A DNA stretch of 63,865 nt, counting the filler, from an uncultured Methanosarcinales archaeon (lineage in GTDB: Archaea > Nanobdellota > Nanobdellia > Woesearchaeales > JAGLXL01): NCBI GenBank assembly GCA_964472345.1. It is 4 parts of 4 records of this genome, joined end to end, with 100 filler letters (N's around TTAATTAATTAA, not from the genome) between each part and the next. Parts side by side here need not be neighbours in the genome. Positions count along the whole stretch, not along the records: positions 1 to 20,045 come from CAYYLB010000014.1; 3 more parts are not named here. One strand, written 5' to 3'. Below are positions 12,001 through 15,000 of the stretch, one piece after another. Made by a program: the position numbers. The first letter of the stretch is position 1, and every line of letters begins with the position of its first letter.

Positions 12001-15000
12001 CGAACATCCGAATCATCCTTGCAAGGACTGTCCCTTGTCTATTAAAATCCTCAAGAAGGGTGTTCAGGTAGGCTTTTGCTCCATGCTGTTCATCGGTTTC
12101 ACCATCCTTTTTCGCAAGGGCGGCTCGAAGTGACCCTATATTTTTCTCTATTCCACCCTCACCATTATTACCACTGGAGTAACCGACAAGCGCAAGTTTG
12201 TCGTGGAGCCGCGCCATCGCCCGTCGTGCACTCGCTGCAATAGAGGTATCATAGCTGCGCTCAGCGTCGTTCTTGTGCGCACCTTTTGTTATCTGCCATG
12301 CATAATCAGCGATGAGATGCGGAAGCGCGTTGCAGCCACCACCATCAGTATTTTCAACGAGCGCGTGCATCTCGGCCTGAGCACCCGCGAGCCGCTCGAG
12401 CGTGCTCTTATCATCTGAGCTTAGGTCAAGCGCATTTGCTTGTGAGAGGTCGTATCGTATTTGAAGGGCATCGGGTACCTCTGTCGCTTGTCCCATCCCC
12501 GCAGATACGTCGGTGAGCGTTCGGGCGTCATCAGAGGAAGCGACGGCCTCAAGGTAACTGGGATTGACATCACCAAGGCGAAGGGGTCCTGCACAGCCTG
12601 CTAAATATACTGCTCCGCCGAGTGCTGCTGCTACCGCTGCGTTAAATTCTCTGCGTGTTATTCCTGCTTGTGATGATCCCGCAGAGGCATCCCCACTAGC
12701 AACATAAAGTGCTTGAGCAGGCACTTCAGGAGGCGAAAAATAAGATCTAATCAACCCAAAAAGCCCTTGCCGTGTGTGACCTTCAGTCATGATGGTTTCC
12801 TCCCAAAGACAAACTCTTCTGCTCACCCACCCCTTGCTCCTGCCCCGAGTCGCTCCTTCTATTTAAACCTTTCGCATTTGTATCTATCTTATAATAGTGA
12901 CATTATGTAAATAACAGAGAATGGTGACTACGATGGCCTTGCATGAGGTGCCACGCGCGCATGCGTCCCGCACTGTTTCATTTCCAGCCAGCACCCAACC
13001 CACAAGGCGCCGCTCCCGATGCCGGCTCCCGCGATGCCGCGCACCCGTCGTTTCCGCTTCCGTTAACCCCTGCGCTCCCAGGCATCACCGCTCCGCAAAA
13101 AACAAAAGGATGGGGACGCTGCGATTCGAACGCAGATTGGCCGGTATCAACCGCAAGTCTTGTCATCGGCACGCGCCTCATCGCTCCACGACTGGAGCCG
13201 GCCGTACTGGCCAGGTTATACTACGTCCCCACAGGCAGCAAGAGCGGCAGGCGGTTTAAAAACGTTTCTTGCTTGTGGCGTTATTGAAAAGTTCGCCAAG
13301 GCGGCCAGTGAGCGCTGGCGTAATCAGGATGCCTGCCAGGCTCTAGCTCGACTCGAGTCCGAAGGACAATCAGGTCGAGCGTAGCGAACGGGAACTTTTC
13401 AATAACGCCTTGCTTGTGCGCTGCAGGAGTTTAAGGAGCTCTCTCACCGCATCATAGCCGAGCGAAATTTTCGCTCCCGCCGTTTCCGGAAGCAGGGGAA
13501 GATGCTCCGAGGAAAAGCGCTTGTTTGCCGAGGTCTTTTCGAGCGATTGCGCAAGCTCGATGTCGGGAGTAACCGGTTTTGCCTGTCCGGTTTCCGTGCA
13601 CATGCGCCAATCCATCAGCCCCACCTCCGTGATCCCATGAGCAGGGATCCATTGAGGATGTTGTTGCGGAGATGGATGTTTTTGATGTGTTGGAACGAGG
13701 GAAACCAGTGCAGGTTCACCCGGCGCCGCAGCGTTGCTTCGTACGGCTTCAGGTCGAACGGCTTTTTTTGCGGAGTGATGAGCGCAATGTCAATATCTGA
13801 TTTCTCGGCGATTTCTGCCTTCGCGGCGGAGCCGAAGAGGATCACGGTTGGCTGTGCGAACCTCTTCTGGAGCGCTGCGGTTAGCGGCCCGAGCCTCTTT
13901 CTCCAGTAGATGCAGCATAGATCCTTTGCGTCGTCAGTTTCATTGTTTACAGAAAACAGCAGCCTGCCGTAGCGCTGCTCCCTGTGGAGGAGACCTGCCT
14001 TGTGGTATGCGTTGAGCATGCGGGAAGCAGTCGGAGGGCTCACGCCGATCAGCCTTGCATACTCGCGGACGCCGATGCGGCGGGAGCAGTCCTCGAACCA
14101 CGGAGAAAGACTGTTTATTATTTTTAACATATGTTATATAAATTTAACACTTGTTAATAAATATTTCCAAACTGCAGGCAGGGATACCCTGACGGACGTT
14201 CGCCGCTATGGCTTCCATCTCCGCTGCAGCCCTTTCCCGATGCGCCCATACTCTGTCTCGCCGCGGAGTGCGCCAAAGAAGCGGAAGAGTTCGCTGCCGC
14301 TTTTCCGGTCGCGCGTATGCTCCCGCTGCCTCTTCATAAGTATCCTGTCCATGACCAATCTATAGTGCATAATGGTATAAATATCTTGCGCACGTGCTCG
14401 CTAGGGCGTCGTCTTCTTCGCATGCAGAGCCACCTTTATTAACACCCATGCAGTTTCCCCGACCATGCTCGAGCTCGACGGCAGCCACGGCGAGGGCGGC
14501 GGCCAGATCATCCGCACCGCATTGGCATTAAGCACGCTCACCGGCAGGCCGTTCCGCGTCACCAACATCAGGAAGAACAGGCCGCAGCCGGGGCTGAAGG
14601 CGCAGCATCTCACGGCGCTCACCGCGTTAAAGGAATGGTGCGGTGCGAAGAGCAGCGGCGTTGCCGTCGGCACGGAGGAGTTCTGGTACGAGCCGGGAGC
14701 GATCCGCGGCGGGCGCTTCTCGTTTGACGTCGGCACCGCAGGGAGCATCACGCTCGTCCTGCAGGCATTGCTGCTTCCTGCCCTGTTCGCCCCGAAAAAA
14801 ACAGCCATCACGCTCACGGGAGGGACCTGCGGCAAGTGGCAGGCGCCGGTCGAGTATTTCCAGAACGTCCTGCTGCCGCACCTGCAGCGGTTCGCTTCCG
14901 TCGGGTGCAGGCTGCTGAAGCGCGGCTATTATCCGAAAGGCGGCGGGCAGGTTGTCGTTGAAGTCACGCCGCGGCTGCCGCTGAAGGATTTTGAGTCATT

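Follow-up and report, generated by a model that had tools for sequence, protein, structure and literature searches.

Insertion at a fixed, short distance upstream of promoters is known from bacteria, where the TnGBS integrative and conjugative elements and the ISLre2/ISKra4-group insertion sequences (ISs) insert in front of sigma-A promoters, 15-17 nt upstream of the -35 box, and leave the promoter intact (PMC3942029). In that paper the authors propose a contact with the initiation complex, taking as an analogy Ty3, which is guided by TFIIIB, and the ISH6 group of haloarchaea, with its AT-rich target, is suggested to favour promoter regions (PMC3942029). The elements described here resemble TnGBS/ISLre2 in being DDE elements that lie at a fixed short distance upstream of a promoter, with a target-site duplication (TSD) that ends 6 nt before the TATA box, at the edge of the BRE. 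The two differ in that TnGBS/ISLre2 are bacterial, use sigma-70 promoters and a Mutator/IS256-type (p-MULT) transposase, and are oriented, whereas the present elements are archaeal, use BRE/TATA promoters and a DDE_Tnp_1/IS5-like transposase, occur in both orientations (8:8) and are mostly MITEs.

Ty3 of yeast and TRE5-A share with our elements a set distance from tRNA genes and a safe haven in a compact genome. TRE5-A of Dictyostelium integrates about 48 nt from tRNA genes. The guide of these elements, TFIIIB, is built from TBP and a TFIIB-like factor, whose archaeal homologues are TBP and TFB. However, Ty3 and TRE5-A are retroelements that carry an integrase and are confined to Pol III genes, while here DNA transposons use both the tRNA and the protein promoters of the single archaeal polymerase. 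The preliminary description of this genome had named Ty3/TRE5 as the precedent; the closest known case is TnGBS/ISLre2 and not Ty3/TRE5 alone.

A further comparison concerns PIF/Harbinger, a eukaryotic superfamily related to IS5, whose MITEs accumulate just upstream of genes. In PIF/Harbinger and the Tourist MITEs (mPing of rice) this preference is loose, within about 1 kb, whereas here the position is exact to the base. To our knowledge no fixed-distance promoter targeting has been described for IS5, and none was found in the literature searched; neither was an archaeal case of such targeting, the supplements of the MITE census PMC11602168 lying outside that search.

A family A element at the tRNA-Trp promoter

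The window, i.e. the whole stretch of 63,865 nucleotides analysed, contains a family A MITE of 133 bp (13277..13409, no strand assigned) bounded by 18-nt terminal inverted repeats (TIRs) GGCGTTATTGAAAAGTTC without mismatch and devoid of an ORF of its own; this TIR has four matches in the window versus 0.03 expected. The element is flanked by two identical copies of the 8-nt TSD TTGCTTGT (no strand assigned), a promoter-side one at 13269..13276, with whose last base toward the promoter the extended BRE begins, and a distal one at 13410..13417. Directly between the TSD and the TATA box sits the BRE-like hexamer GAAACG (13263..13268, minus strand) of the tRNA-Trp promoter, followed by the TATA box TTTTTAAA (13255..13262, minus strand), which starts 14 nt from the element end and leaves 23 nt to the 5' end of the tRNA. 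The tRNA-Trp (cca) itself, which has a 46-nt intron (13108..13231, minus strand), has its 5' end 45 nt from the element; it was called by ARAGORN with introns enabled, the default mode returning none.

On the other side, an 84-codon ORF of no known family (13370..13624, minus strand) crosses the distal TSD into the element, which cuts into its last codons. With the element removed, this ORF would have 75 codons and its stop would be a TAA inside the TATA box; if it is a real gene, the insertion site offered no intergenic spacer. The upstream neighbour gene (13615..14130, minus strand) encodes a protein with HTH and nucleotidyltransferase domains.

The tRNA-Trp promoter lacks the element in the five relatives examined (G002, G003, G004, G005 and G006), and in three of them (G003, G005 and G002) the same TATA box as in the window is found at a comparable distance, about 23-24 nt, before tRNA-Trp; the promoter is older than the element. 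This bears on the idea that the BRE/TATA is part of the element, or that the element supplies the promoter, in which case the spacing would be built in. Such behaviour has bacterial examples, with IS6-family and Correia elements either bringing a promoter along or giving rise to one (PMC7986276 and PMC10969869). Here, the same TATA box precedes tRNA-Trp in element-free relatives, the promoter sequences differ from copy to copy, and the TSD lies between TIR and BRE in 16 of the 21 complete family A copies, which refutes a built-in promoter; we give this explanation practically no weight.

As the preliminary description had stated, no empty site could be found: the Logan contigs of four groundwater runs of one study, searched over 12800-13900, contain none, although these contigs break inside the repeat and rare alleles are not visible in them. 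The left junction of the window copy is present in the contigs of all four runs, and none skips the element. A DNA search with the locus in eight other genomes of the family matched the tRNA gene alone, in six of the eight; hence, the comparison above is one of orthologous, element-free promoters in other genera and not of alignable empty sites.

A second family A copy of 219 bp lies at 75..293 (no strand assigned), with the same TIRs, one mismatch and an interior different from that of 13277-13409. Its TSD ACTCCCTC occupies 67-74 and 294-301, and is followed by a BRE-like AAAACA and a TATA-like TTCTTAAA (302..315, plus strand; matrix score 11.7), with an offset of 14 nt from the copy. The ATG of a 911-codon gene with a weak GH113-like domain (338..3073, plus strand) is found 44 nt beyond this copy.

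Promoter geometry of family A

In the whole genome (G000) family A comprises 21 complete copies of 132-310 bp and six lone ends (C9:4590, C45:10164, C67:5558, C101:2601, C114:1843 and C116:1667). The 8-bp TSD is perfect in 12 copies and differs at one position in another 4; the sum, 16/21, is the count reported before. The family thus combines 18-nt TIRs, a TSD of fixed length, small size and multiple copies without a transposase gene, as expected of MITEs. The distance from element end to gene start is 44-47 nt in 15/21 copies by our own gene calls, equal to 45-48 in the counting of the preliminary description, which had claimed 14/21; additional to these, the C7 and C24 copies have an ATG opening an ORF at 45 and 46 nt, respectively. 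The tRNA-Gly on C44 is 47 nt from its element.

Most of the genome is leaderless, and TATA hexamers are most frequent at -31 to -28 relative to ORF starts. The BRE+TATA matrix was derived from 196 promoters that do not adjoin family A elements, with a match threshold of score at least 9, the gene starts and the matrix being computed calls and not measured transcription starts. At this threshold, the TATA box starts 13-16 nt from one element end in 19/21 copies, and exactly 14 nt in 13 of them, the order at the junctions being element, 8-bp TSD, 6-nt BRE and TATA. The same fit is found at 5543 of 234,183 control intergenic junctions (2.37%; binomial P 2.6e-29 for family A). The earlier observation is confirmed and is stronger than had been claimed. 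Two copies, C18:15932 and C110:1109, show no BRE+TATA match near either end.

These figures allow us to weigh the possibility that insertion is random, and that purifying selection in a compact genome spares the copies just outside promoters. The genome is indeed compact, and what is observed are surviving copies. However, the non-promoter side of the copies has 22-1763 nt of free DNA, ample for most of them, and yet the offset is 14 in 13/21 and 13-16 in 19/21; the product of the local chances across the copies is 10^-29.5. Also against selection, the window copy cuts the end of an ORF instead of using a spacer. We consider selection alone very improbable, a judgement to which the other families and genomes described below contribute.

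Concerning what is recognised, a target logo (n=23) holds information in RAAAC and TATA alone, with none in or beyond the TSD. The orientation of the elements relative to the promoter is 8:8. Accepted boxes vary as much as the promoters of the genome (TTTTTAAA, ATTAAATA, CTTATAAA, GTTTTTGA and TTCTTAAA). Targeted promoters are not stronger than others (median score 16.4 vs 14.7, P 0.16), and the genes behind them, both tRNA and protein genes, belong to no special class, so there is no sign that expression level guides where the elements insert; with 4 among about 25 insertions, promoters of tRNA genes may be slightly in excess.

This pattern could mean that the transposase itself reads the sequence or bendability of BRE/TATA on naked DNA, maybe with its end-binding domain, and cuts at a fixed distance with no host protein involved. 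The conserved target bases are those of BRE and TATA only, the spacing is sharp to the base, and in the A and B TIRs the inner segment, taken in the direction of the tip, bears a faint likeness to BRE+TATA (GAAC-TTTTCAA), all of which agree with such direct reading. But relatives with unlike TIRs (GGGTTTGTCCCA, GGCTCTGTCCTA; GTCCCAA-type) target the same position, and the accepted boxes being so varied, the transposase would have to be as permissive in its choice of sequence as TBP and TFB together. Neither point is decisive, and direct reading remains a plausible explanation that we nevertheless lean against. Those same relatives weaken any general account based on TIRs that mimic BRE/TATA.

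Other MITE families of the genome

Four other families were compared with family A. Families B and E had been said to follow the rule by TATA spacing, and they do: BRE+TATA spacing fits in 4/5 copies of B, the fifth having no promoter nearby, and in 2/4 copies of E at score at least 8. Families C and D had both been described as departing from it. This holds for C, which has another TIR and A-rich targets and fits in 0/8 copies, but not for D, whose best offset is 14-15 in 5/5 copies after shifting the ends by one base, with a score of at least 9 in only 1/5. The insertions of family C lie elsewhere, some directly against TATA boxes. Since family C misses the rule in the same genome and under the same selection, it argues against selection alone. 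In families A, B, D and E the duplicated DNA lies next to the promoter and is not conserved; in this they differ from ISH6, which duplicates the AT-rich motif itself, much as family C does.

An autonomous IS5-like partner and its relatives in other genomes

The preliminary description had stated that no transposase with these ends is in the assembly. This stands for G000, where neither protein nor profile search found the partner transposase, while that profile matched 11 times in G206. Outside this assembly, a transposase with these ends does exist. In G206, an autonomous IS5-like element of about 0.93 kb (G206:C17:3822-4752) has the same 16-nt TIR as the MITEs; its left TIR is present, together with 13 nt of the right one and an ORF of 283 codons; such elements are also present in G253 and G344. 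This autonomous partner with the same TIR in related genomes is new here. The left ends of the full-length element in G206 and G344 lie 14 nt from TATA in 3/3 cases.

The partner transposase scores 25.5 bits against PF01609 (cut-off 23), and its best NCBIfam model is NF033579 IS5 (E 5.6e-22, 78.6 bits, curated cut-off 140). The DDE triad and the Y-2-R-3-E-6-K signature are invariant in 17 transposase sequences (D111, D182, E234, Y227, R230 and K241). The likeness to IS5 thus comprises the DDE triad and this signature, a size of about 0.9 kb, GG(C) tips, a PF01609 score above the cut-off and IS5 as the best NCBIfam model. Because the NCBIfam score of 78.6 is far below the curated 140, the enzyme is best placed, on sequence grounds, in a putative divergent clade of IS5.

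Other sources were considered. IS6 parentage, suggested by the GG tips, the 8-bp TSD and one IS6-like gene, was rejected, as the element of that gene, the sole IS6-like one of G000 (on C31), is about 1 kb long with other ends (TIR GATACTGTC) and a 9-bp TSD. Searches of G000 and G002 for ISL3 and IS1595 found neither, and the long repeats of G000 are not an IS, being glycosyltransferase paralogues.

The same geometry is seen in other genomes. In G002, of another genus of the same family, 9/9 complete copies show the promoter spacing as judged by eye. Other genomes supplied 62 distinct ends. Taking the best match of each with score at least 9, the offset is 14 for 19 ends, 15 for one and 16 for one, and no other offset occurs more than twice; control junctions in these loci fit in 1.13%. 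Distant relatives of the transposase, in other genomes of the order, are 24-31% identical to the partner, and carry TIRs that either agree with those of family B or are similar to those of family E. Ends were resolved in 11 of 16 such loci (L100, L107, L112, L114 and L118 being left out), and 9 of these 11 score at least 16 at 15-16 nt; locus L123 has one flank missing. Either end of the full-length distant relatives may face the promoter. Four of the loci have an exact 9-bp TSD and offset 15. The TATA offset is therefore 14 nt with an 8-bp and 15 nt with a 9-bp TSD, which means that the constant is the 6-nt gap from TSD to TATA. Selection would not shift the offset from 14 to 15 with TSD length.

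Proposed mechanism

In sum, the promoter-guided target choice that had been proposed is supported by the fixed TATA spacing, the other genomes, the full-length IS, the 8:8 orientation, family C and the free DNA on the far side of the copies. We consider it highly probable that the transposition complex chooses its target guided by the promoter, the MITE being a derivative moved in trans by an IS5-family transposase. The window element would be a non-autonomous deletion derivative of an insertion sequence of about 0.9 kb, mobilised by a DDE transposase absent from this assembly. The core promoter would pick the target for the transposition complex, and a staggered cut would then leave the duplicated 8 bp (9 bp in the distant relatives) ending exactly 6 nt before TATA and bordering the BRE on its upstream side. 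Counted from the start of these leaderless genes and of the tRNAs, this is about -37 to -45. With its core promoter undamaged the gene would still be expressed, and the position would be a harmless one to insert at where a genome has hardly any DNA to spare. It should be noted that, no empty site or fresh insertion having been seen, the data represent surviving insertions, and selection must have removed those inside promoters and genes.

As for the guide, chances seem evenly divided that it is the bent promoter, bound by TBP/TFB, which tethers or orients the transposase. The tether is proposed on parsimony, the tolerated sequences spanning the range of the promoters themselves, and on one insertion found downstream of a palindromic TATA. 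A complex prediction with TBP, the TFB core and the transposase alignment gave a score of 0.00, in a run without controls, and so speaks neither for nor against the tether.

In a broader reading, which we offer tentatively and hold at a little short of even chance, an IS5-family transposase clade of DPANN archaea would be recruited by the TBP/TFB-promoter complex and integrate at its upstream edge, the solution of the Ty3 integrase and TFIIIB being reached by a DNA transposon in the ancestor-like transcription system of archaea. Since PIF/Harbinger has its prokaryotic relatives in IS5, the tendency of the plant Tourist/mPing MITEs to lie upstream of genes could then go back to this same contact.

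Implications

If promoter guidance is true, this would be the first base-exact promoter targeting by transposons in archaea, and, next to the eukaryotic Ty3/TRE5 and the bacterial TnGBS/ISLre2, the third independent case of mobile elements that find their insertion sites through the machinery of transcription initiation. The elements would mark real promoters in uncultured DPANN genomes, each copy pointing to a TATA box 14 nt away, and the enzyme could serve archaea as a promoter-proximal, gene-sparing insertion tool. It would also show how a 1.2-Mb genome carries dozens of transposon copies without gene loss.

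The element upstream of the tRNA-Trp gene

The element at 13277-13409 is a family A MITE of 133 bp with perfect 18-nt inverted ends (GGCGTTATTGAAAAGTTC) and the direct repeat TTGCTTGT on both flanks. It lies on contig C14 (window positions 1-20045) of the genome under study, G000, an assembly of 1.26 Mb in 120 contigs with 57% G+C. To its left, on the minus strand, stand a 6-nt BRE-like GAAACG, a TATA box (TTTTTAAA, 13255-13262), a spacer of 23 nt and an intron-bearing tRNA-Trp gene (13108-13231). Genomes G003, G005 and G002 have the same TATA box at a similar spacing from tRNA-Trp (about 23-24 nt), and no element precedes this gene in the five relatives examined; hence, the promoter is older than the insertion. 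To the right lies an ORF of 84 codons, unassigned to any known family, which crosses the repeat and extends into the element. In an element-free sequence it would have 75 codons, ending at a TAA within the TATA box; provided that it is a real gene, the insertion landed where there was no spacer. A second family A copy, with another interior, occupies 75-293, 44 nt upstream of the ATG of a 911-codon gene.

In X3, one of four groundwater sequencing runs, one contig (depth 3.9) links the last base of the window element to its first through 8 other letters, which reflects either tandem copies with one common target or the circle junction of a transposition intermediate. Concerning tRNAs, ARAGORN in default mode calls none in the window; with introns allowed it makes 17 calls in the genome, 12 of them with an intron, a few of the introns being of implausible length (546 and 2822 nt). 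tRNAs are clearly under-called in G000.

Spacing between family A and promoters

Family A comprises 21 complete copies and six lone ends, the majority at contig ends. The copies have a common 133-bp core, within which short GC-rich palindromic modules (for example GGAAAAGTGCGCTTTTCC) in varied combinations extend the length to 157-272 bp; the copies on C1 and C22 and at C14:75 have the TIRs alone in common. The 8-bp target-site duplication (TSD) is perfect in 12/21 and has one mismatch in four more, which reproduces the 16/21 of the preliminary description.

Over 1181 ORFs, TATA-like hexamers concentrate between -31 and -28 relative to the start codon, which indicates that G000 is largely leaderless and that starts can be placed by their promoter. 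We scored promoters, which like the gene starts are predicted, with a 15-column BRE+TATA matrix derived from 196 promoters away from family A. A score of at least 9 with the TATA box beginning 13-16 nt away from one element end (the offset) is found in 19/21 copies: the offset is 14 in 13, 15 in four, 13 in one and 16 in one, and nothing reaches this score near C18:15932 and C110:1109. The same test is passed by 2.37% of 234,183 intergenic junctions and 0.6% of all positions (binomial P 2.6e-29), and a tenfold error in this null, derived from crude gene calls (1224 genes, 81% coding), would make no difference. Gene starts, previously placed at a set distance from 14/21 copies, lie 44-47 nt past the element in 15/21 by our own calls, with ATG-led ORFs at 45 and 46 nt from two further copies.

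Other MITE families of the genome

Family B fits the spacing in 4/5 copies (scores 13-19) and family E in 2/4 at a score of at least 8, plus one reversed case. Family D had been placed outside the rule; with its ends shifted by one base the best match lies at 14-15 in 5/5 copies, which speaks softly against that placement, as only one reaches score 9. Family C (TIR GTATTTGTTTAGCAC; for example C7:20406-20538, C13:17927-18059, C22:791-923, C42:7535-7847 and C80:533-665) duplicates A/T-rich octamers such as AAAAAAGA and GTTTTTGA, and two of its copies directly abut TATA boxes; its target rule is unlike that of A, B, D and E, its 0/8 copies with the spacing agreeing with its earlier exclusion. 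One more family consists of repeats of about 90-105 bp with about six self-matches each; it is explained by none of the five TIRs (C1:44521-44612, C3:22127-22216, C6:1030-1130, C7:12227-12322 and about 20 more).

The reversed case belongs to a pair of MITEs, at C5:13264-13630, around one palindromic TATA box (TTTATAAA), 14 nt on either side. Family B is on the BRE, or regular upstream, side, and the family E copy (C5:13281-13412) is 14-15 nt downstream, where it separates the box from the ATG (minus strand, about 13264) of the gene that this box served, which is thereby severed from its promoter. The same ruler seems to have been applied here in the wrong orientation.

Such a downstream insertion is at odds with the idea that purifying selection alone explains the spacing, the insertions counted being those surviving in metagenome-assembled genomes. 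Further points against selection alone are that the non-promoter side of the 19 family A copies offers 22-1763 nt free of called genes, where hitting the observed 4-nt window each time has a joint probability of 10^-29.5 if all positions are equally allowed, and that family C is under the same selection, yet lacks the spacing. Moreover, the spacing follows the duplication length, with 14 nt for 8 bp and 15 nt for exact 9 bp in distant relatives (loci L102, L103, L105 and L109); hence, the 6-nt gap from duplication to TATA box is the constant. The promoter-guided target choice proposed in the preliminary description is thus supported, and the spacing, confirmed here, extends to other families and genomes.

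Candidate transposase and occurrence in the order

The sole transposase gene of the assembly is a frameshifted zinc-ribbon and IS6-like gene on C31. It belongs to an AT-rich single-copy element of ~1 kb (G000:C31:10668-11678, L012) with TIR GATACTGTC and a 9-bp duplication, by which it is ruled out as the MITE partner; the frameshift lies at a T/A run. These ends were established from relatives at 41-70% identity in Woesearchaeota and Nanoarchaeota MAGs, which have 9-bp duplications.

The partner was found in relatives whose contigs in many cases break off about 125-140 nt inside the TIR. In another genome of the order, G206:C17:3822-4752 spans the left TIR, an ORF of 283 codons and 13 nt at the start of the right TIR; the full-length family A element is known as far as this contig end. 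The last residues of the protein are encoded by the TIR, which the ORF enters. The protein's match to PF01609 exceeds the cut-off, IS5 is the top NCBIfam model for it (5.6e-22, under the curated score), and invariant D111, D182 and E234 with Y227, R230 and K241 compose the IS4/IS5 signature in a 17-sequence alignment; in the Atlas it falls within an archaeal DDE_Tnp_1 cluster of 493 members. In this IS5-like clade (L091 from G206:C17, L097, L099, L103 and others) the ORF crosses the right TIR and its stop often lies only in flanking DNA, hence the C-terminal tail varies between copies. As already described for family A ends, G000 has no such transposase: protein and profile searches gave no match, the same profile recovering 11 pieces in G206.

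Homologues (E <= 1e-20) occur in 23/401 genomes of the order, a tally including one unpublished genome that was not used. Those aligned are 24-31% identical to the G206 protein, except two close relatives at 76-77%. Elements of the distant homologues measure 880-1020 bp, and their TIRs include GGCTCTGTAGAA, identical to the first 12 nt of the family B TIR, GGCTCCGGTGAAA, like family E, GGTTAGTAGAAA and GGGTTTGTCCCA. Where ends are resolved, 9/11 have one end 15-16 nt from a match of score at least 16; in full-length elements the promoter-side end can be either one.

The 16-nt TIR, with one mismatch allowed, occurs in 79/401 genomes (four, flagged unpublished, were left out of later work), and a reversed control pattern seldom matches. 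Other genomes yielded 62 distinct ends, including some coding look-alikes that passed the filter. Among them, the best promoter match (score at least 9) is at offset 14 in 19, at 15 in one and at 16 in one, with at most two at any other offset; at the same loci 1.13% of positions pass. In G002, of another genus in the same family, a sister MITE (TIR GGCGATATTGAAAAGT) has the TATA box at 14 in all nine complete copies, judged by eye.

A TIR-like 16-mer also occurs within a conserved coding stretch (reading G-V-I-E-K-C-A-A) of several genomes (L055, L057, L059, L064, L065), which gives false positives in TIR pattern counts. A second repeated element with the same 16-nt TIR is present in G206 (L070, L072, L074, L076) and G210 (L073, L075, L077, L079). 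Its end-proximal ORF points outward and terminates, shortly before the TIR, in a conserved FECNFCGAKW tail; the interior of the element is unassembled, and about half of its ends lie 14 nt from a TATA box.

What guides insertion

When 23 reconstructed targets are aligned on the insertion point, information is confined to RAAAC (BRE) and the TATA octamer, apart from the last base of the duplication, which is C-rich (15/23) and opens the extended BRE; neither the other duplicated bases nor the 20 nt beyond carry any. DDE transposases usually have symmetric preferences centred on the duplication, whereas here the sole target signal lies on one side of it. Targeted promoters are as varied and strong as others (median 16.4 vs 14.7, P 0.16), targeted genes are ordinary (oxidoreductase, Fe-S assembly, ferredoxin, nuclease, SDR, MoxR ATPase, hypothetical proteins, tRNAs) and element orientation is free (8:8).

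According to footprint and crystal data, TBP bends the TATA box, and the BRE immediately upstream of it is read by the TFB core. On this picture the TBP/TFB complex would leave the duplicated bases as the first unoccupied DNA at its upstream edge, and there is perhaps an even chance that promoter-bound TBP/TFB recruits or orients the transposition complex. Direct reading of promoter DNA by the transposase is a possible, more doubtful explanation; guidance by TBP/TFB is favoured on parsimony, the tolerated sequences being those these factors tolerate, and by the single downstream-side insertion at a symmetric box.

Comparison with known systems

Guerillot et al. 2014 (PMC3942029) describe TnGBS ICEs and IS of the ISLre2 and ISKra4 groups as inserting in one orientation, 15-17 nt to the upstream side of the -35 box of sigma-A promoters, and propose contact with the initiation complex in analogy to Ty3 and TFIIIB; in the parts of that paper covered here, archaea are represented only by ISH6, which duplicates an AT-rich motif. 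Promoter-guided insertion in archaea is not mentioned in the covered parts of an IS6 review (PMC7986276), a MITE review (PMC10969869), a MITE census (PMC11602168, main text) and a 2026 archaeal IS survey (PMC13343696), and a full-text literature search found no report of it. The present case resembles TnGBS/ISLre2 in its mode of insertion but lies outside that group, from which it differs in transposase superfamily, promoter type and lack of orientation bias. Like Ty3 and TRE5-A, it likely makes use of TBP and a TFIIB-like factor. Among eukaryotic transposons, the kin of the prokaryotic IS5 family is PIF/Harbinger, whose Tourist MITEs favour the 5' side of genes. Speculatively, promoter targeting by IS5-like elements may be linked to this 5' bias of Tourist MITEs.
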